The notes below the pieces were generated by a model that did not search any database, was not told the origin of the DNA, and was given only the letters and a program-made list of their open reading frames with translations. Both the position numbers and the translations under genes were made by a program. A stretch of 63,498 nucleotides of DNA from Candidatus Aenigmatarchaeota archaeon (lineage in GTDB: Archaea; Aenigmatarchaeota; Aenigmatarchaeia; Aenigmatarchaeales; JAHLMR01), in NCBI GenBank assembly GCA_018920255.1, contig JAHLMR010000002.1, positions 1 through 63,498 on the forward strand, written 5' to 3'. Positions within the stretch are counted from its first letter, which is position 1. Each line of letters opens with the position of its first letter. Of this stretch, positions 3,305 through 56,340 are shown piece by piece.

Positions 3305-4801
3305 TTAAAGTAATTTAAATATAATAGTTTCTCTATTTTCAAAAACCTTTTCAAAATGTTTTGTATCTTGTAACATAGTATTAATAAAAGTAGGAGTAAA
3401 TGCACCAATAATATTTGATTCTGGAATTATATAATCTCTTCCTACAAATGCAGACCAAATTAAAATATAGGATACATTATATTTTTTTAATATTTCATAA
3501 TCATATGTTGAGTTTGTTCCACGCATCAATTCAGGAAATTCTTCTCCGATGCTTACCGAACTTCTTTCTCCATATATTTTAAGAGCCCCAGCATAAACGG
3601 TAAATATTTTATCATAAGTATTTGTATTTTCTTTTATCCATTTTAGTGCAGCAATATAATCTGGTGTATATCTTATTGATTTTGAAGTTAAGTCTATTGT
3701 ATTAAAAGTATTTAGTAGCGAAAATAAAAGTAAAATAAATATAATAATTACTATGAAATATTCTATTATTCTTTTTTTCTTTATAAGTTCATATAAAAAA
3801 TAAGCATTAATAATAGCTATTTGTGGAAAAATTATTGTTAAATATCTTGTTTCTAAAATTCTTTCACTAAAAATATAAGATTCTATAAATAATAAAATAA
3901 AAAGAATAATAAATATAAGCATTAAAATATATTCAATTTTTCTTTCTTGTAAAATTAAAATAAATGCAAAAATTAAAAGAATAAATTGAATAAAACCAAA
4001 CGTATTTATAAAAAATGGTATTGATGGAATAGCATAAGAAAGAGTTGAAGTAGCTTCTTTAATCCAAGAGATTTCTTTTATCGGATATTTAAAAAAATAA
4101 TTTAAAAATGGCATATTCGGATAGTTAAATTTTATTATATTCATAATAACATGTGGTAATAATATTGAAGATGTGATTAAAATAAAAATTAATAAAAATT
4201 TAATATTTTTGTTTTTTAAATATTCATAGATAAGATAACAAAATGTTAAAAATATTAATAAAACCCCAGAATTTTTAAAATAAAATGATATAGCAGAAAA
4301 TATACTTAAAAATATTAAATTTTCTATAGTTTTATTTTTATCAAATCTTATTATAGAATAAATAATTAAAGCTGAAAAAAATGCAATCTGAGCATCTACA
4401 TATGCTATAAGTGAAAGATGAAAAAGAAGTGGAAATGATAATAAAAATAAAGTACATACAATTGAAAAATATATATTTTCTATTTTTTTTCCAAGAAAAT
4501 ATATTATAAATAAAAGAAATACTGTAAACATTGCAGTAAAAATATGACTTATTGTTAAAATTTCAAGATAATTATTAAAAAATAATGATGGTATACCAGT
4601 AATTGCATAAAAAAATAATGTTTGGCCCGATTCACTTAAATTTTCAGGATATATTTCACCGTTAATAAATTTTTTTGAATATACAATTCTTTCTTCATCC
4701 TCACCGAGCATCGGTGTTATACTTGCAGAATAAATTAAATAAATACCAAATATTAAAATTAAAATTATTACAATTTTTTCCAAGGTTTTTTTATTTATCA
4801 T
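3305..4801 (-). CDS. polytopic membrane glycosyltransferase, GT39/ArnT-PMT-like
   Basis: 498 aa with many hydrophobic helices and a C-terminal soluble domain. The stop/start overlaps the upstream polyprenol-P GT gene. Confidence 0.55.
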   Translation of the reverse strand: MINKKTLEKIVIILILIFGIYLIYSASITPMLGEDEERIVYSKKFINGEIYPENLSESGQTLFFYAITGIPSLFFNNYLEILTISHIFTAMFTVFLLFIIYFLGKKIENIYFSIVCTLFLLSFPLLFHLSLIAYVDAQIAFFSALIIYSIIRFDKNKTIENLIFLSIFSAISFYFKNSGVLLIFLTFCYLIYEYLKNKNIKFLLIFILITSSILLPHVIMNIIKFNYPNMPFLNYFFKYPIKEISWIKEATSTLSYAIPSIPFFINTFGFIQFILLIFAFILILQERKIEYILMLIFIILFILLFIESYIFSERILETRYLTIIFPQIAIINAYFLYELIKKKRIIEYFIVIIIFILLLFSLLNTFNTIDLTSKSIRYTPDYIAALKWIKENTNTYDKIFTVYAGALKIYGERSSVSIGEEFPELMRGTNSTYDYEILKKYNVSYILIWSAFVGRDYIIPESNIIGAFTPTFINTMLQDTKHFEKVFENRETIIFKLL

Positions 4802-5787: not shown

Positions 5788-7830
5788 ATGAATATATCTA
5801 AATTTTTAGAAAAATCTTGGATTTTAATACTTTTAATAATTTTTATAATTTCATTTTGGGTTCGTGCAGTAGGCATTATACCAGATAAAATTTTATCATA
5901 TGATCCGGTTTTTGAATATAGATATCTTAGATATTTAGTAGATTTTGGTACAATTCCAGTATGGGATGAATTGGGTTATTATGTTGGAAGACCATCAGGG
6001 GTTTTTGGACCAGCATTACCTCAGGAAATTTTAACAATTTTTATTTATAATTTATTAAAATTTTTTATTTCAATTAGCTTAATAACTGCTGCAACTTATT
6101 CTGCAGCATTTTTTGGTGCATTAATACCAATAGCAGCATTTTTATTAGTTAGAGAAATTTCAAATAATAATTGGGGTGCATTATTATCTGCAGCATTAAT
6201 TGGTACTGCACCACAAATTTTAATAAGAACATTTGGTGCAAGTTATGATACAGACCAGCTAGTCTTATTTTTTATATTAGTTACACTTTGGTTAGGAATA
6301 AGAGTTATAAAATTTAAAACACCTTCATCTATATTTTTAGCAACAACAGGGTTCTTTTTATTTGCAACAATGTGGAATATGTTCACTTATACATTAATCC
6401 TTTCATTTGCTTTTTTTATTTTTTATTTTATTTTTTCATATATACATAAATTTGGAATAAAAACAATTAACTTTCAAAAAATTAAAGAAAATATATTTTA
6501 TTTTAAGAATGAAATAGTTTCATTATTGGTTTTATTTTTTTCATTATTTGTTTTTCTTATTTTAAACAGAACAAATTTAATTGAATTAATATTTAATATA
6601 TTAGGTTTTGCATTTGCTGCAGAAAAACTTATTGTTAATATTTCTATTGCAGAACTTCAAACAGTTTCTTTACTTGATGTTTCTACTTGGATACTTTCTA
6701 TGGGAAGAATAATGATAGGAAATGAACTTGTAGACATTATTATTTTCTCATTTTTCATATCTATGATTTTATTTTCTTTGTATTATTTATATAAAAATAA
6801 AAAAATATTTGAATTTAGTATTTTGTTTACTCTTATAGTTTTTGGTTCCTATACTGTTATAAGAGGAATAAGATTTACAGAATTTACTTCAGCTTTATTT
6901 TTATCGATTATAGGTATAGGTTTTAGTTATTTTCTTATATTTTTAAAAGATGAAAAAATTTATAAAAGTATTTTAATTGGCTTAGCTATTTTTACTGTAT
7001 TAATATCTTTTTCAATTGCAATAGAAATGGGTCCAAAACTTGGGCCAGATACAGATAAAAATTGGAATGATGCTTGGGAATTTTTAAAGAAAAATACAAA
7101 TGAATTATCTTTAGTTGGTACATGGTGGGATCCAGGACACATGATTGCAGGATTAGCTGAAAGAAGAAATTTAGCAGATGGTGCACACTGTGGAAATAAA
7201 GATTGTCTTTTTGGAATAAATGATAGAATAACAGATACCGGAAGAATATTTTCAATTGAAAATGAAACTGAAGCATTAAATTTAATAAGAAAATATAAAG
7301 GAACAAGTCCAGAAGTTTATTGGATAGCATCTTCAGATCTAATTGGAAAATTCCAATGGATACAATATTTTGGAACAGGATGCGATGCAAGAAAGGAGCA
7401 AAGATGTCCGCTTTATTTACAAATAGGATTGCAAAATATAAATAATTCTGAATATGGAAGTTTAATATTAAATTATGGAAATATTAAAATTTTATTAAAA
7501 GATAATAAACTAATACCAATTTATATAGAAAAAAGAAATGGAATGTTATTTTCGGAAATAATTTATTATGAAAATGAAAAAATAAAATCTATAAAAGATA
7601 TAGAAATAAATTCTACAGAAATAGGTAAAGAATTAAATATAAAACTTTTAAATCAAACTATTCCTTATTCTTTATATTTATCAAAAAAAGCAGAGTATAT
7701 AGTAATAATACCACCAAATTTAAGAAACAGTATATTTACAAAGATGTTTTTCTTTGATGGAGAAGGTTTAACAAATTTTGAAAAGGTATTTAGTAATGAA
7801 GATGTTAAAATTTTTAAAGTAAAACTATGA
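5788..7830 (+). CDS. aglB: archaeal oligosaccharyltransferase AglB (STT3 family)
   Basis: Multi-TM N-terminal domain followed by a TWWDPGH motif (WWDYG-type). 680 aa. Confidence 0.85.
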   Translation: MNISKFLEKSWILILLIIFIISFWVRAVGIIPDKILSYDPVFEYRYLRYLVDFGTIPVWDELGYYVGRPSGVFGPALPQEILTIFIYNLLKFFISISLITAATYSAAFFGALIPIAAFLLVREISNNNWGALLSAALIGTAPQILIRTFGASYDTDQLVLFFILVTLWLGIRVIKFKTPSSIFLATTGFFLFATMWNMFTYTLILSFAFFIFYFIFSYIHKFGIKTINFQKIKENIFYFKNEIVSLLVLFFSLFVFLILNRTNLIELIFNILGFAFAAEKLIVNISIAELQTVSLLDVSTWILSMGRIMIGNELVDIIIFSFFISMILFSLYYLYKNKKIFEFSILFTLIVFGSYTVIRGIRFTEFTSALFLSIIGIGFSYFLIFLKDEKIYKSILIGLAIFTVLISFSIAIEMGPKLGPDTDKNWNDAWEFLKKNTNELSLVGTWWDPGHMIAGLAERRNLADGAHCGNKDCLFGINDRITDTGRIFSIENETEALNLIRKYKGTSPEVYWIASSDLIGKFQWIQYFGTGCDARKEQRCPLYLQIGLQNINNSEYGSLILNYGNIKILLKDNKLIPIYIEKRNGMLFSEIIYYENEKIKSIKDIEINSTEIGKELNIKLLNQTIPYSLYLSKKAEYIVIIPPNLRNSIFTKMFFFDGEGLTNFEKVFSNEDVKIFKVKL

Positions 7831-9101
7831 GAAAGATTTTTATGAAATTTTATTGTTTAGGAGGTTTTAGAGAAGTTGGAAGAAATGCTATATTATTAGA
7901 AACTTCTAAAGAAAATGTTCTTTTAGATTATGGAATAAAGGTAGAAACAAATGAATTGCCGTTATCCATAAATAAAAAAATAGATGCATTAATTCTTTGT
8001 CATCCACATTTAGATCATTGTGGTGCAATACCAACACTATATAAGAAAAAATTATATAAATTTCCATTATATTCAACAGCAGCATCTTTAGATCAATCGC
8101 ATTTATTATGGAAAGATAGCATGAAGGTAGCAAAATTGAAAGGAAAAAAACAAGTTTTTAATGATTCTGATATTCAAAGAACAAAACAAAATGAAAATAG
8201 AATAACTTTTGGTCAAAGATTTGAAATAGGAAATTTAAATATAGAAGTTCATTTTGCTGGTCACGTACCAGGCTCGCTTATGCCTGTAATTGAATATAAA
8301 GATAAAAGAATTTTATATACAAGTGATTTTAATACATTAGATACAAGATTACTAAAAGGTGCTAATATAAAAGAGTTTAAAGATATAGACATTTTAATAA
8401 CAGAAAGCACATATGCTGATCGTGAACATCCAAAAAGAGAAGAAGTTGAAAAAGAATTTATAAAATCTGTTGAAGAAACAATAGAAAACGGAGGAGTAGC
8501 ATTAATTCCTGTTTTTGCCGTAGGAAGAGCAGCTGAAATAATGTTAGTTTTAAATTCTTCTAATCCAGACTATCCGATTTATCTTGATGGTATGGCAAGA
8601 GAAGCAACTGAAATTGCATTAAGATATCCAGAACTATTAAAAGATCCAGAAGCACTTCGTAATGCTATGGATAAAATTATACCATTATATACAGATGACG
8701 AAAGAAAAGAAGCAATAAAGTCTCCATGTGCAATAATAACAACAGGAGGATGTTTGGAAGGTGGACCAATTATATTTTATCTTTCACAACTTCATGATAT
8801 TGAAAACTCATCATTACTTTTTACAGGTTATCAAATTCCAAATACAGCAGGAAGAAAAGTATTAGAAACAGGAAGATTTATAACAAATGAATTAAATTTT
8901 AAAATAAAAATGAAAATAAAAAGTTTTGATTTTTCAGCACACATAGGAAGAACACAACTTTTAAATTTCATAAAAACATTAAATCCAGAAAAAGTAATAT
9001 GTATGCATGGAGATAACTGTGAAAAATTTGCTAATGAAATTAGTGAAACTTTTGGAGTTTATGCTGAAGCACCAGAAAATGGAGATGTAATAAAAATATG
9101 A
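7827..9101 (+). CDS. beta-CASP metallo-beta-lactamase RNase (aCPSF2-like, no KH domains)
   Basis: HPHLDHCG (HxHxDH) motif and C-terminal CMHGD. ATGA overlaps with both neighbours. Confidence 0.85.
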   Translation: MRKIFMKFYCLGGFREVGRNAILLETSKENVLLDYGIKVETNELPLSINKKIDALILCHPHLDHCGAIPTLYKKKLYKFPLYSTAASLDQSHLLWKDSMKVAKLKGKKQVFNDSDIQRTKQNENRITFGQRFEIGNLNIEVHFAGHVPGSLMPVIEYKDKRILYTSDFNTLDTRLLKGANIKEFKDIDILITESTYADREHPKREEVEKEFIKSVEETIENGGVALIPVFAVGRAAEIMLVLNSSNPDYPIYLDGMAREATEIALRYPELLKDPEALRNAMDKIIPLYTDDERKEAIKSPCAIITTGGCLEGGPIIFYLSQLHDIENSSLLFTGYQIPNTAGRKVLETGRFITNELNFKIKMKIKSFDFSAHIGRTQLLNFIKTLNPEKVICMHGDNCEKFANEISETFGVYAEAPENGDVIKI

Positions 9102-10122
9102 AAGAAAAAATTTTATTAATAAGATCTAAAATAAAAAATTTAAAATTTATAACTGGTCCGAGTAGAGTAGGCTTAGAATTAGAAAAGGGATTAAGAAAAA
9201 AATATGATGTTGAAACTATACAAATATCTAAATATCATGAATTATTTTGGTTAGTACCATATTTAATTATAAAATCAAAAGCAAAAATAGTCATCTGTAT
9301 AGGAACAGATTATGGTTATTTTATACCATTTTTATCAAGTAAAAAAGCAATAGTTATATTTCATGATCTTTTTCCTTTTACTCTTCAAACCCAATTGTAT
9401 AAAAATTTTTTAGGAAAATATTTAATAAAAATCTTTTTATTTATTATGTGGAAATTAGCTTCTTTAAATTTTCTTTTGGTTTCAGATTCATCTCAAACAG
9501 CAAAAGAACTAAAAATATTTTTTGGAAAAGAATCAGAAGTTATAAATCTTGGTGTGGATATAAATAGATTTAAACCCCTTAAATTTAAAAAATTAAAAGA
9601 ACCAATAAAGCTAGGATTTTTTTCTCATTTTATTTATAGAAAAGGAGTAGATATAGCAATAAATATTTATGAAAAATTAAAGAATAAAATTAATTGTGAA
9701 TTAATTCTTGTTGGAGGAAAATTCACAAGAACAACAATAAAAGTTGTTGATATAGAAAAATTAATAAAAAATGATAAGAACGTTAAAATTTTAGGTAGAA
9801 TTCCAGATAAAGATGTACCAAAATTATATAATTCATTTGATTTCTTTCTCTTTCCAAGTAGATCTGAAGGTTTTGGACTTCCTATTCTTGAAGCAGCAGC
9901 TTGTGGAATACCTGTATTTACATTAGAATCAGCACATATACCGGAAGAAGTAAAAAAAGCAAGTATTGTTTGTAAAGATGAAGATGAGATAGTTGAAAAA
10001 ATAATAGAATTATCAAAAAATAAAAAATTGTATGATAAAATTAGATTTGAAAAAATGAAATATGCAAGAAAATTTACTTGGGATAAATGTGTTAATGAAT
10101 ATGATAAATTAATACAAAAATC
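9020..10122 (+). repeat. copy B of the ~1.1-kb direct segmental duplication
   Basis: See copy A (1-1103). Confidence 0.85.
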
Positions 10123-10147
10123 ATTAAAAGAAATAAATAACAATTAA
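9098..10147 (+). CDS. glycosyltransferase family 4, paralog B
   Basis: 349 aa. Mosaic identity to 79-1119. SRSEGFGLPILEAAACGIPV motif. Confidence 0.85.
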   Translation: MKEKILLIRSKIKNLKFITGPSRVGLELEKGLRKKYDVETIQISKYHELFWLVPYLIIKSKAKIVICIGTDYGYFIPFLSSKKAIVIFHDLFPFTLQTQLYKNFLGKYLIKIFLFIMWKLASLNFLLVSDSSQTAKELKIFFGKESEVINLGVDINRFKPLKFKKLKEPIKLGFFSHFIYRKGVDIAINIYEKLKNKINCELILVGGKFTRTTIKVVDIEKLIKNDKNVKILGRIPDKDVPKLYNSFDFFLFPSRSEGFGLPILEAAACGIPVFTLESAHIPEEVKKASIVCKDEDEIVEKIIELSKNKKLYDKIRFEKMKYARKFTWDKCVNEYDKLIQKSLKEINNN

Positions 10148-10152
10148 AATAT

Positions 10153-11160
10153 ATGATTGTTTTAAACGGATCAGAAGCAGGAGGACAGTTTGTAAGAACA
10201 GCAATAGCTTTATCAGCAATTACAAAAACTCCAGTAAAAATAACAAACATTAGAGGTGCAAGAAAACCACCGGGCTTAAAAATTCAACATATAGAAGGAA
10301 TAGATGCTATAGGAAAATTATGTGATGCAAAAATAAATGGTCTAAAGTTAGGTTCTAAAGAGATTGAATTTATTCCAGGAAATTTAGTTTCAAAGGATTT
10401 AGAAATAAATATTTCTACTGCAGGTTCTATAGGATTAATTCTTCAAGCAATTCTTTTAGTTACAGCAAATCTTAATGAAAAAATTAAAATAAAAATAAAT
10501 GGTGGAGCAACATTTGGCAAATGGGCCCCTTCACCATATTATTTAGAAAAAGTCATTTTTCCACTTATAGGAGAAAAAACAAAAATAAATGTTATAAAAG
10601 ATGGTTTTTATCCAAAGGGCGGAGCAGAAGTTGAAGTCTTTACAGAGCCTTGGAAAAAAAGAAAAATTGTTTATGAAACTTCAGGAAATATAAAAGAAAT
10701 AAAAATTTTTTCTTATTCTTCAGAATTATTAAAAAGTAAAAATGTTGCAGAAAGACAAGCAAACTCAGCAGAAATTTTTTTAAAAGAAAAACTAAACACT
10801 GAAATTTCAAAAGAGATTTTTTATTCTAAATCTTTATGTGCTGGTTCAGGAATTTTAATAGTTTGTAAAACAGAAAATTCTATTTTTGGTGCTGATGCTA
10901 TAGGGGAAATAGGAAAAACATCTGAAAATGTTGGATTAGAAGCAGCAAAATATCTTTTAAATGATTTATTTAATGGTGCAGTTGATATTCATGCAGGAGA
11001 CATGCTTTTACCATACATCGCATTTAATGGATCTGGAAAAATATTAGTACCAAAAATTTCTCAACATATTATTAAAAATATAGAAGTATTAGAATCATTT
11101 TATAAAATTAAATTTAAGGTTGATGGTGAAAAAGGAAAACAAGGAAAAATTATTTTATAA
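10153..11160 (+). CDS. rtcA: RNA 3'-terminal phosphate cyclase
   Basis: GSEAGGQFVRTAIALSAIT N-terminus, FYPKGGAEV, ~335 aa. This is the typical RtcA layout. Confidence 0.85.
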   Translation: MIVLNGSEAGGQFVRTAIALSAITKTPVKITNIRGARKPPGLKIQHIEGIDAIGKLCDAKINGLKLGSKEIEFIPGNLVSKDLEINISTAGSIGLILQAILLVTANLNEKIKIKINGGATFGKWAPSPYYLEKVIFPLIGEKTKINVIKDGFYPKGGAEVEVFTEPWKKRKIVYETSGNIKEIKIFSYSSELLKSKNVAERQANSAEIFLKEKLNTEISKEIFYSKSLCAGSGILIVCKTENSIFGADAIGEIGKTSENVGLEAAKYLLNDLFNGAVDIHAGDMLLPYIAFNGSGKILVPKISQHIIKNIEVLESFYKIKFKVDGEKGKQGKIIL

Positions 11161-42428: not shown

Positions 42429-42547
42429 GCGGGGGTCGCCAAGCCAGGTCAAAGGTGCAGGACTGAGGCTCCTGTGGGTTAGTCCCTTCGTGAGAAACTT
42501 TCTTATTAAGAGAAAGTTCACGAATTCAAATCTCACCCCCCGCACCA
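42429..42547 (+). tRNA. tRNA-Leu(GAG) with a ~30-nt insert in the T-arm and an encoded CCA
   Basis: Acceptor GCGGGGG/CCCCCGC. Anticodon stem CAGGA/TCCTG with loop CTGAGGC. Long variable arm GGG-TTAGT-CCC. T-stem GTGAG (42490-94) is separated from the T-loop TTCAAAT + CTCAC by 42495-42524, which folds as an 8-bp hairpin. Confidence 0.8.
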
Positions 42548-47030: not shown

Positions 47031-47627
47031 ATGTTAGAACAATTAGTAACAGCAATTGTAGATTTTATTTCAAATTCTGGCTATTTAGGAATATTTGTTT
47101 TAATGACATTAGAAAGTGCTCTAATTCCTATACCAAGTGAAATTATAATGCCCTTTTCAGGATATCTTGTATATACTGGAAAATTTGGATTTTTAGAAAC
47201 AGTTCTTGCTGGCACTTTAGGAAATCTCTTTGGTTCATTAATTGCATATGATTTAGGAAATAGATTAGGAAGAAAATGGTTAGAAAAATATCTTAAATTT
47301 ATGCATAAAGAAAAATTGATGAATAAGGTTGATAATTGGATTTTAAAATATGGATGTTATACTGCATTTTTTTCAAGAATGATGCCAGCAATAAGGACAT
47401 TTGTTTCATTTCCATTAGGTATTTCAAAAATGAATTTAAAAAAATTTTGTATTTTAACTTTTTTAGGCTCATTTATTTGGTGCATACCATTAACATATTC
47501 AGGAATTATTTTAGGTCCTTATTGGCAAAAAATTTTAGATATCTTTCATACATTTGAAATTTTATTTTTTATAATATTTATATTTGTTATTTTTATATAC
47601 TTTGAAAAAAGAAAAATATTTCAATAG
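47031..47627 (+). CDS. DedA/SNARE-associated family membrane protein
   Basis: LESALIPIPSE and FFSRMMPAIRTFVSFPLG motifs. Confidence 0.85.
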   Translation: MLEQLVTAIVDFISNSGYLGIFVLMTLESALIPIPSEIIMPFSGYLVYTGKFGFLETVLAGTLGNLFGSLIAYDLGNRLGRKWLEKYLKFMHKEKLMNKVDNWILKYGCYTAFFSRMMPAIRTFVSFPLGISKMNLKKFCILTFLGSFIWCIPLTYSGIILGPYWQKILDIFHTFEILFFIIFIFVIFIYFEKRKIFQ

Positions 47628-47743
47628 CCCCGTCGTCTAGCGGCCAAGGATGGGGGGCTTTGGTTTTACCAAAGCTTTGAGAAGCAAAGCTTCAGTGAAA
47701 AAGAAACCCCCTGACGTAGGTTCGAATCCTACCGGGGCTACCA
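47626..47743 (+). tRNA. tRNA-Gln(UUG) with a 42-nt canonical 37/38 intron and an encoded CCA
   Basis: A1-U72 acceptor AGCCCCG/CGGGGCT. Anticodon stem GGGGG/CCCCC with CTTTGG...A. Intron 47664-47705. T-arm GTAGG-TTCGAAT-CCTAC. The first 2 nt overlap the TAG stop of the DedA gene. Confidence 0.85.
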
Positions 47744-54371: not shown

Positions 54372-55412
54372 ATGACATCTTTTTTGGAAAGAATTTTAAA
54401 AAGAAAAAAGAAGGAAGAAGATTTAGTTGATATACCTCCTTATAAAAAATCAGAAAAACTCAAAATTTGGATGCCACCTCTAGACTCTTCAAAAGAAGAT
54501 TTAGTTGATATACCTCCTTATAAAAAATCAGAAAAACTCATAATTTGGATGCCACCTCTAGACTCTTCAAAAGAAGATTTAGTTGATATACCTCCTTATG
54601 AGAATCAAAAAAAGACTCTTCAGAAAAACTCATAATTTGGATGCCACCTCTTTCAGAGAGAAAACATATTTCTTTTAATTTAAAAGACGCGGTTCTTGAA
54701 CTTCATTTTCCATCTTCTAAAAAAGAAATAAATGAATCTCATTATAAGACTTTTCAAGTTAACCCCATTAATTATTTTTGTTTGGGTGAGACTGATGAAT
54801 TTGGAAAACCCATATCACAATATGAAATAATATTACATTTACCTAGTTATCCTTTAGAAACAGCACATAGAAGAATAGTAGATATAAGAAAAAATAATGA
54901 TAATAATGAAAAGTATTTTTATTTTATTGGTAATAAACAAATTTTTTTAAAAAAAATATGACAATTTTTTAAAAGGAGAAGTTCACTCGTTTGTTAAAGA
55001 TGTAGTTTTTATAGATGATATTATAAAATATTTTGAGGAAAACGAAGGGAAATCTATTAAAGAATATATTAATGATTCTCCATATTTATATGAGGTACAC
55101 CCAGGATTTGATGCCTTTCTATTGAAGTATTTGAAAAAAGAAAAAGATAATCAATCAACTTTGAGTGTTTGTCATACACATCCACAGAGTTTTGGAACCC
55201 GTTTAAGTAATTTAGACATTGGTGCATTTGAGAGTGAATTAAGATATGATAAAATTTTGGGTGTGTGTGATTTCTATGGTAAAAACTATGCTTTTTATCC
55301 AATACCATCTACTTTGAGAGGAGAAATCTCACTACAAAGAGAAACAGTATATTTGGATAATTTTCATAATCCAATAACAGTATATGATAAAATTATAGAA
55401 ATTCAACTTTAA
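54372..55412 (+). pseudogene. repeat-containing JAB/MPN (JAMM-like) metalloprotease gene broken into three frames
   Basis: The three pieces are 54372-54635 (frame 0), 54641-54961 (frame 2), and 54951-55412 (frame 0, no start codon until the TTG at 55122). The JAMM-like motif CHTHPQSFGTRLSNLD is in the last piece. The breaks coincide with a scrambled repeat unit and a T7A8 tract. Confidence 0.5.
54417..54651 (+). repeat. 78-bp tandem repeat: 2 full units plus a rearranged third
   Basis: Units start at 54417, 54495 and 54573. Units 1 and 2 differ at 1 nt. Each encodes EDLVDIPPYKKSEKL(K/I)IWMPPLDSSK. Confidence 0.9.
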
Positions 55413-56034: not shown

Positions 56035-56072
56035 AATTTTTAAATAAATTATTAAAATATTATAAAATTTAT

Positions 56073-56288
56073 GCCGAGGTGGCATAGCCAGGTAGTGCGC
56101 AGGTCTGGAGAACCTGTGCTCGAAAGAGCGCGTGAGTTCAAAGAACCTTCTTTGCAACTTCTTTAAAAAAGAAGTTGCATCAAGAAAGATAGTTTTTCCT
56201 GCTGAAGCTTCTTTTTTTGAAAAAGAAGCTTCGAAGAAGGTTCATCAAGAAAACTTAAAAAACTGGGAAATTCTCACCCTCGGCGCCA
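56073..56288 (+). tRNA. tRNA-Ser(GGA) with a 129-nt structured insert in the T-loop and an encoded CCA
   Basis: Acceptor GCCGAGG/CCTCGGC. D-stem GCA/TGC. Anticodon stem CAGGT/ACCTG with loop CTGGAGA. Variable arm GCTC-GAAA-GAGC. The T-arm GTAGG-type stem GTGAG-TTCAAA[56143-56271]T-CTCAC is interrupted. Confidence 0.8.
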
Positions 56289-56340
56289 ATTTAAAGTTTT
56301 TAAATAATTATCTTCTTATTTAATTATTGAGGTGAATACT

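Follow-up and report, generated by a model that had tools for sequence, protein, structure and literature searches.

A tRNA-Ser(GGA) gene of an aenigmatarchaeon is interrupted in the T-loop by three nested copies of a dispersed 34-nt hairpin unit

Introns with non-canonical bulge-helix-bulge (BHB) motifs have been described in the tRNAs of Thermoproteales, Thaumarchaeota and ARMAN/Micrarchaeota, together with tRNA splicing endonucleases (EndA) of broad specificity (PMC4033280, PMC5829648, PMC8450103). Such broad-specificity enzymes cut BHL and hBH motifs (PMC4033280), and in DPANN lineages special EndA loops are found together with raised tRNA gene disruption (PMC5829648). Similar introns occur in different archaeal tRNAs; according to a 2010 study, as summarised in later papers, their gain is thought to take place at the DNA level, by a transposition mechanism stated to be unknown (PMC4090602, PMC4033280). 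For Caldiarchaeum subterraneum, a model of tRNA intron gain through integration of a mobile element has been proposed (Sugahara et al., 2012, PMC3293823). Here we analyze a tRNA-Ser(GGA) gene that is split by a 129-nt insert at site 59/60 of the T-loop, on contig JAHLMR010000002.1 of an Aenigmatarchaeota genome (assembly GCA_018920255.1). The whole stretch analyzed, referred to as the window, spans 63,498 nt and has a GC content of 25.7%; other contigs and genomes carry L numbers. The body of the insert consists of three nested copies of a 34-nt hairpin unit. In our judgment the locus is likely to be a working tRNA-Ser(GGA) gene with an EndA-spliced 59/60 intron made of three repeat copies, of recent origin from a mobile repeat and probably without a function of its own.

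In the intact window ARAGORN calls no tRNA, but with nucleotides 56143-56271 deleted it returns an 87-nt tRNA-Ser(GGA) with a canonical cloverleaf and four intact stems, as the original prediction of a tRNA-Ser(GGA) split by 129 nt would have it. Rfam gives the locus only a sub-threshold partial tRNA match (23.5 bits, 56073-56156). The predicted insertion site also stands, since a junction between A59 and U60 is the sole assignment that yields the 7-nt T-loop UUCAAAU. In 35 long open reading frames (ORFs) of the window the codon UCU is used 22 times per 1000 codons, so a tRNA-Ser with G34 is required. The 63-aa ORF at 56132-56323, already suspected to be spurious, is mechanically present; it overlaps the tRNA and is uncalled in the assemblies that span the locus (L081-L083). 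An upstream motif that we take to be TATA-like, from the archaeal TATA consensus as generally known, and a downstream T5 run, presumably an archaeal transcription stop, frame the gene (Table 1).

The insert is not an assembly artefact, and it is stable in the population. The S10 protein encoded just upstream of the tRNA-Ser gene is identical on eight public contigs. The tRNA is spanned in three independent NCBI assemblies of the species (L081, L082, L083), in all of which the 129 nt are identical but for one single-nucleotide polymorphism (SNP), C or T at 56199, at an unpaired base of the fold. The exons are invariant in the three assemblies, whereas the flanks and the intron hold SNPs. Two short-read Logan contigs of the species (L084, L085) end inside the first hairpin of the insert, as is expected of an inverted repeat; such introns may fragment assemblies and conceal tRNA genes. 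As a separate observation on these contigs, the gap between the EF1A and S10 genes (window 54372-55412; 1409-2464 in L081) holds a single 351-aa gene without a Pfam match in L081 and L083, while in the window, L082 and L085 the gene is split into ORFs of 87-113 aa and 96 aa, the first of which contains in the window a tandem peptide repeat (EDLVDIPPYKKSEKL.IWMPPLDSSK, about 2.5 copies). The two strain types of this gene also differ at SNP 56199.

The gene order at the locus is aEF1A-S10-tRNA-Ser, and a tRNA-Ser lies directly 3' of S10 in many Aenigmatarchaeota genomes. The best S10 relatives are metagenome-assembled genomes of Aenigmatarchaeota (DPANN), namely the species-representative genomes L050 (86%) and L001 (82%), which places the window in an archaeal host. 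Relatives' tRNA-Ser genes were located with a profile of intronless orthologues, single-sequence nhmmer being too weak. In the closest relatives (L050, L002, L003, L005, L008) the tRNA-Ser(GGA) at the S10 locus is uninterrupted, and the insert is therefore a lineage-specific gain. The comparison with relatives suggested by the original prediction offers no intermediate form of the intron, because a search of 5.8 billion proteins returned no S10 between 85% and 100% identity. The T-stem of the window, GTGAG/CTCAC, differs from that of the relatives on both strands, so the two exons still match each other.

The fold put forward in the original prediction is reproduced by RNAfold with all of its helix coordinates. 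The minimum free energy is -45.4 kcal/mol against -24.9 +/- 3.5 for shuffled sequences (z = -5.9; 0 of 200 shuffles as stable). The closing helix comprises 10 bp and a U.G pair and encloses hairpins of 11 bp (56154-64/56168-78) and 13 bp (56204-16/56220-32) with a small hairpin between them, leaving a 28-nt tail unpaired. These helices resolve into a repeat. The unit, 34 nt in length, is a GAAACTTCTTT-N3-AAAGAAGTTTC hairpin followed by the tail ATCAAGAAA, and its 19-nt stretch AAGAAG(T/G)T(G/T)CATCAAGAAA is present twice in the insert as a direct repeat (56169-56187 and 56234-56252). The intron body is three nested copies of the unit: the loop of the outer copy holds a 79-nt inverted doublet made of units 2 and 3, and the middle hairpin arises from the pairing of their opposed tails. 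In strains L081 and L083 the tail of unit 3 reads AGCAAGAAA (regular-expression match), a GAAGC/AGCAAGAAA variant also seen in L091.

Each level of this architecture recurs elsewhere. The outer layout, 13-nt linker included, is that of a tRNA-Leu intron of L134, 52 nt long and also at 59/60; the doublet has 78% identity over 88 nt (BLAST) to the intron of another tRNA in L125; the three-hairpin layout is found in tRNA introns of L125, L133 and L193; and nesting within a unit loop also occurs upstream of rpoH in L213.

Table 1. Coordinates of the tRNA-Ser(GGA) gene, its intron and related features; positions are those of the window unless another contig is given.
Feature	Contig	Position	Strand	Basis
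TATA-box-like motif (presumed) TTTAAATA, 27-34 nt 5' of the tRNA start	window	56039..56046	+	read from sequence; weak evidence in a 26% GC genome
5' exon of tRNA-Ser(GGA): acceptor GCCGAGG, D-arm, anticodon arm CAGGT-CTGGAGA-ACCTG (anticodon GGA), long variable arm, T-stem 5' strand GTGAG (56132-36), T-loop TTCAAA (positions 54-59; 56137-42)	window	56073..56142	+	ARAGORN on spliced sequence; alignment of intronless orthologues; window sequence
Intron, 129 nt, site 59/60	window	56143..56271	+	sequence; ARAGORN after removal; fold; same in L081-L083
Outer unit 5' arm GAACCTTCTT, 5' strand of closing helix (h' beside the 5' splice site)	window	56143..56152	+	fold; same arm in L100, L113, L115, L150, L183
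Unit 2: GCAACTTCTTT-AAA-AAAGAAGTTGC and tail ATCAAGAAA	window	56154..56187	+	nhmmer unit profile, E = 5.7e-8; variant as in L096, L174
Small middle hairpin from the facing tails of units 2 and 3; SNP 56199 inside, unpaired	window	56181..56201	+	fold; SNP
Unit 3, inverted: GAAGCTTCTTTTT-CAA-AAAAAGAAGCTTC and tail AGCAGGAAA	window	56195..56232	-	nhmmer match 56232-56196
Outer unit 3' arm AAGAAGGTTC (3' strand of closing helix) and tail ATCAAGAAA	window	56234..56252	+	partial nhmmer match; 19-nt repeat
A-rich single-stranded linker from outer-unit tail to H helix	window	56253..56265	+	fold; L134 linker of the same 13-nt length
H3 GGAA, pairing with T-loop U54 U55 C56: 3 bp and an A57.G mismatch	window	56266..56269	+	
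3' splice-site bulge A-U|U60; cut predicted between 56271 and 56272	window	56270..56272	+	
3' exon: U60 (56272), T-stem CTCAC (56273-77), acceptor CCTCGGC, G73, encoded CCA	window	56272..56288	+	ARAGORN on spliced sequence
T5 run, 9 nt past CCA	window	56297..56301	+	sequence
tRNA-Leu(GAG) with 30-nt intron at 53/54 (42495-42524)	window	42429..42547	+	Rfam 29.5 bits (permissive scan, 42429-42544); ARAGORN after removal of 30 nt; fold
tRNA-Gln(UUG) with ~43-nt intron at canonical 37/38, encoded CCA	window	47626-47743		Rfam gathering match 47626-47740; parsed by eye
43-nt insert at 59/60 of tRNA-Ser	L055			orthologue profile at S10 locus
17-nt insert at 59/60 of tRNA-Ser; anticodon-loop intron too	L056			orthologue profile at S10 locus
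28-nt insert at 59/60 of tRNA-Ser	L076 (Micrarchaeota)			orthologue profile at S10 locus
145-nt multi-hairpin insert at 59/60 of tRNA-Ser; D-loop intron too	L061 (Aenigmatarchaeota AUK200)	3800-4060		orthologue profile

Judged by its sequence, the insert most plausibly belongs to the archaeal introns that are spliced by an endonuclease, a class to which the original prediction did not assign it, and has a relaxed BHB motif of the hBH/BHL type. In the T-arm, site 59/60 corresponds exactly to the canonical site 37/38: positions 54-57 act as positions 32-35, the 5' strand of the central helix H, while one bulge is made up of positions 58 and 59 with the first intron base and the other of the last two intron bases with U60. 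In all seven tabulated 59/60 introns (L055, L056, L061, L076, L134, L193, L205) the 3' end is a tetramer that can pair with positions 54-57, followed by xx|U60, and a strict hBHBh' motif can be formed in L205 (H = UUCA/UGAA, h' = GAAAC/GUUUC) and in L134. In the window, the 3' site A-U|U60 lies in a canonical bulge between the 5-bp T-stem and H and the 5' site A-A|G at the base of the 10-bp closing helix, which fits the relaxed motifs (hBH/BHL/HBh') as categorized in PMC4033280.

Splicing would proceed as follows. The T-stem would remain paired in the pre-tRNA, and U54-U55-C56 would pair with intron bases G125-A126-A127 into a short central helix. The 3' cut (intron U129 | exon U60) would then fall within a standard 3-nt bulge, the 5' cut (A59 | G1) within a loop of 3-4 nt where the 10-bp closing helix begins, and EndA would cut this relaxed BHB. 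The RtcB ligase would join the exons into the normal UUCAAAU T-loop, with the predicted junction ...GAGUUCAAA|UCUCACC..., and the structured intron would be freed, probably as a circle; for excised BHB introns circularization is expected by default. EndA splicing, RtcB ligation, circular release and an origin from mobile or mobile-element-derived DNA are all inferences.

Inserts at this and other odd sites are not restricted to the window. The insert is unusual for its size but not for its site, as relatives have inserts of 17-145 nt at 59/60 of the same tRNA (Table 1). That of L061 is unrelated in sequence to the insert of the window, with a 5' site that likewise lies opposite a long strand, and the 59/60 inserts of more distant relatives are equally unrelated in sequence. 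Other sites in tRNA-Ser are occupied as well, at about 53/54 in L009 and in the anticodon stem in L001, L004 and L007.

Two further tRNA genes of the window are disrupted. The tRNA-Leu(GAG) at 42429 is missed by ARAGORN when intact and scores barely at the Rfam threshold. Its intron runs in the order of one base, the hairpin AACUUUCU-UAUUAAG-AGAAAGUU (as DNA, AACTTTCT-TATTAAG-AGAAAGTT), CACG and AA; the hairpin serves as h' in a clean HBh' motif, with H formed by CGUG (positions 48-51) and CACG, and it has a CTTTCTT-type arm like the second hairpin of doublet introns elsewhere. The tRNA-Gln intron has a standard motif (H = CUUU/AAAG) with an inner hairpin AAGCTTTG-AGAAG-CAAAGCTT. Given these introns, the genome clearly depends on endonuclease splicing, T-arm included. 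In the intact window ARAGORN missed all three tRNAs and the Rfam gathering score called tRNA-Gln only; such introns may contribute to the incomplete-looking tRNA sets of DPANN genomes.

Several points weigh against splicing of this insert or against its derivation from a mobile repeat. A strict hBHBh' motif cannot be formed, as H has three of four pairs (UUC/GAA and an A.G mismatch) and the intron helix is not contiguous with H3. What relaxes the motif is the distance of about 22 nt (the linker at 56253..56265, the 9-nt tail and C56243) from the closing helix to H in the strand facing the 5' site. Archaeal transcription could end early at T5 and T7 runs within the intron, the T7 run lying at 56212-56218 (+ strand) inside unit 3. 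No EndA-like ORF was detected in the 63-kb window, in a weak search with an approximate M. jannaschii EndA query. Other copies of the element, which the original prediction had raised, did not turn up: neither BLAST nor the unit profile finds the unit in the window beyond the three copies in the intron, nor does the profile find it at 80 related S10 loci, leaving mobility within this lineage unsupported.

On the relaxed, interrupted motif and the internal T runs one might also build the case that a mobile hairpin element killed this tRNA-Ser(GGA), with another gene or wobble by tRNA-Ser(UGA) covering UCU and UCC; the closest relatives lack any insert, and both ARAGORN and Rfam leave the gene uncalled. 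Such a pseudogene would, however, have to retain flawless exons, unchanged in three assemblies while flanks and intron acquired SNPs, at the conserved single tRNA-Ser site after S10 and in a genome where UCU is a major codon. In addition, the geometry of the 3' site is common to seven other 59/60 introns, and the tRNA-Leu of L134 has the same unit-plus-linker layout. We therefore consider a dead gene very unlikely and retain the reading as a spliced intron.

Other classes of insert were considered and rejected. A self-splicing group I or II intron does not apply, as no ribozyme core is matched in Rfam (gathering and E-value thresholds) and 129 nt would not suffice for one. A box C/D guide RNA within the intron is contradicted by the lack of UGAUGA in the 129 nt, with Rfam snoRNA matches far below threshold, and no Rfam family of any kind matched the insert. 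Nested two-step splicing of the inner doublet finds no bulge-helix-bulge at its borders (by eye). As for an att scar of an integrated element at tRNA-Ser, no repeat of the 3' exon is present near 56073-56340.

The unit itself belongs to a family that is dispersed over archaeal contigs. A metagenome scan with a 19-nt degenerate pattern gave at least 120 loci, about two thirds of them chance matches, and only loci with a complementary 5' arm were used. As the pattern fixes the 3' arm and tail, their variability is unsampled and the survey is biased accordingly; the 5' arm is outside the pattern, so its complementarity is independent evidence. Full units are present in about 37 archaeal metagenome contigs among the matches listed (BLAST and hairpin-aware search), with at least 40 distinct unit sequences collected. 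Among 19 ungapped units, compensatory double changes occur at 5 of the 11 stem pairs, as in the paired variants GAAAC/GTTTC, GCAAC/GTTGC, GAACC/GGTTC, TAAAC/GTTTA and GAAGC/GCTTC, and one position of the tail changes in step with the arms. The host contigs range from 30 to 61% GC. All that could be typed are archaeal, by 16S/23S rRNA (L154, L157), by SRP RNA (L168) or by tRNAs, and L192 belongs to the Micrarchaeota by RpoB''; two or more DPANN phyla are represented among the hosts. A MITE- or REP-like repeat is expected to have many copies at unrelated loci, as the unit does in its tRNA, rRNA, near-gene and virus-like settings.

In tRNA introns the position of the unit is constrained. It starts at intron position 1 or 2 in 8 of the 8 parsable sense-oriented tRNA introns, opening 59/60 introns in the window, L134, L205 and the second intron of L193, and 37/38 introns in L193, L194, L125 and the spacer tRNA-Ala of L154. 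In doublet introns the outermost GAAAC/GUUUC can pair as the intron-side helix, and the six bases directly after it, a tetramer specific to the tRNA and two more, complete strict motifs such as UUUG-CA|A-GAAAC...GUUUC-CAAA-AC|A in L154, where the doublet intron of the spacer tRNA-Ala(UGC) has a perfect hBHBh' motif. Units are also found in antisense orientation in tRNA introns (L133, a doublet; L168; L183), in tRNA leaders or trailers (L159, L105/L120, L200), and after stop codons or just 5' of start codons (L103, L113, L115, L192). In L154 one is found in the 16S rRNA gene (7808-10727), which at 2920 nt against a 1478-position model carries about 1.4 kb of inserts, the unit among them.

The remaining contexts point towards integrating elements. 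In L150 (5077-5260; identical in L158) a unit lies in the 65-nt stretch from an intact tRNA-Val(CAC) to a second, 17-nt copy of its 3' end, which begins at T-loop position 59; the arrangement resembles a pair of att sites whose integrated element has all but disappeared. L174 (6.4 kb) and L091 (5.6 kb), two syntenic contigs that probably belong to an archaeal virus or plasmid, have three intergenic units each; their genes include one for a Zot-like morphogenesis ATPase, others for small membrane proteins and one for a large secreted protein. L186 also has three units, with a partial tandem copy behind one of them; it is the same as L206 (IMG/VR UViG 3300009618_000094; predicted viral, 33% GC), holds two collagen-like repeat proteins and was the only contig matched in the viral contig scan. 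A link of the unit to integrating elements is favoured by the L150 layout and by how densely units occur in virus-like contigs; the window locus has no duplicated tRNA fragment.

With the hairpins of the insert recognizable as a dispersed repeat of archaeal tRNA and rRNA genes and virus-like contigs, the suggestion in the original prediction that it is a relic of a mobile element gains support. The intron most likely arose recently from the DNA of a mobile repeat or mobile-element family, and it would be tolerated because the repeat hairpins provide the intron-side helix of the splice motif; the unit hairpin would thus be what renders the insertion spliceable. Since units occur in both orientations and outside introns, they would have spread at the DNA level rather than for a function of the sense RNA.

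In a bolder form, which we hold to be rather unlikely, the unit would be a short piece of mobile DNA, carried perhaps by the viruses or plasmids of DPANN archaea, that creates EndA-spliced introns on landing in RNA genes. Its inverted ends GAAAC...GTTTC could give the intron-side helix, and duplicated or matching flanks H and the bulges. The 23S rRNA of L157 is the clean case: a unit forms a 54-nt insert, missing from the 23S rRNA of L154, with inverted ends GAAACUUC/GAAGUUUC and a flanking repeat (CCAUGAAA) whose self-complementary CAUG copies form H. The 8-nt repeat, CCATGAAA, yields H = CAUG/CAUG and two AAA bulges, and judging by this arrangement, cuts at the equivalent points would excise the element and one repeat copy exactly. 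The repeat of L157 can also be explained by a BHB with a palindromic H. Target-site duplication is not supported as a general rule, as tRNA introns show inverted, not direct, flank matches, and it is for this reason, and because L157 is a single case, that we give the idea no more weight. If true, archaea would have in this family an equivalent of the eukaryotic introner transposons, and the intron of the window would be an element with a second insertion nested in it.

Alternatively, the unit might not be mobile at all, and reflect convergent selection for the intron-side helix of the endonuclease or a conserved protein-binding or terminator hairpin. The hairpins do serve as h' in the tRNA-Leu, L154, L193, L194 and L205. 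No transposase or nuclease was found among the neighbours of L174 and L091, which were the ones inspected and offered the Zot-like ATPase alone, and no pair of empty and filled sites was found. At rpoH of L192 (10870-10935) the unit lies directly upstream, with the Shine-Dalgarno sequence and ATG (GGTGAGATGT) duplicated on both sides; four of four same-species contigs carry it, and the relatives L212 (82% in RpoB'') and L213 (80%; 1960-2160) retain a decayed orthologous copy, the latter with further hairpins nested in the unit loop and more tandem units. Convergence would, on the other hand, have to account for 34 nearly identical nucleotides, including a 9-nt tail that does not pair, in contigs of 30-61% GC and in places other than introns, and for the L157 insertion that L154 lacks. 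It also sits poorly with the flanking direct repeats, which are of variable length (8-17 nt; L103, L113, L123, L150, L157, L192; none at the window site) and reach at least 9 nt at 5 of about 33 sites against roughly 0.3 expected, a rough estimate. We judge an immobile unit to be unlikely.

The insert might also be spliced and yet have a job of its own, as a stable circular RNA, a protein-binding decoy or a shield that breaks the T-loop att site of viruses and plasmids. Its extreme fold (z = -5.9) and the preservation of the unit sequence across hosts of 30-61% GC are in keeping with this, as are the clustering of units at tRNA genes and in virus-like contigs and the L150 unit at an att-like duplication starting at position 59. 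A role of the sense RNA is nevertheless argued against by units that lie in either orientation with respect to the host transcript (L133, L168, L183); close relatives do without the insert, and it matches no Rfam family and has no C box. We regard a job of its own as quite unlikely. An intron of recent mobile-repeat origin, as set out above, is the reading we prefer.

When compared with known systems, the intron resembles the non-canonical BHB introns in that it would be protein-spliced outside 37/38 through a relaxed hBH/BHL-type motif in a DPANN host, a group known for disrupted tRNA genes. It differs from them in its length (129 nt), in the roughly 22 nt opposite its 5' site and in a body of dispersed repeat copies; current BHB search models are trained on Crenarchaeota, Euryarchaeota and Thaumarchaeota, not on DPANN. 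Compared with the tRNA intron transposition described so far, the module is here a defined 34-nt hairpin-plus-tail unit of at least two DPANN phyla, found also in rRNA, around genes and in virus-like contigs, in both orientations and as singlets, inverted doublets and nested copies. The Caldiarchaeum model shares the association of an intron and tRNA fragments with an integrating element, to which the L150 unit between tRNA-Val and its 17-nt duplicate is similar, but the window locus has neither a recombinase gene nor a duplicated tRNA fragment and involves 129 nt, not 1.8 kb. Bacterial REP and REPIN sequences consist of a short conserved palindrome with a flank, occur as singlets or as inverted doublets that fold into longer structures, and are dispersed between genes. 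The unit is like them in its palindrome with a conserved flank, its singlets and inverted doublets and its intergenic dispersal, and differs in its archaeal hosts, its spliceable inserts in RNA genes, the lack of an identified RAYT-like gene and some flanking direct repeats. The tRNA-Trp intron of Haloferax volcanii, of about 105 nt at 37/38, carries a box C/D guide RNA and is released by EndA. It too is a long structured archaeal tRNA intron, in contrast to which that of the window lies in the T-loop and has no C box or Rfam match.

A search of the literature for literal sequence gave primer matches only, and no paper was found in the literature searched that ties BHB introns to inverted-repeat elements or target duplications, which is not proof of novelty. 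The class of intron is known; what is new is the composite, mobile-looking repeat content of an unusually long member. For the origin of archaeal tRNA introns at odd positions, the locus ties one such intron to a recognizable 34-nt repeat, which abuts the 5' splice site in several tRNAs, forms the intron-side helix there, and occurs beside att-like tRNA ends and in virus-like contigs as well. The unit family is therefore a lead on how introns of this kind arise.

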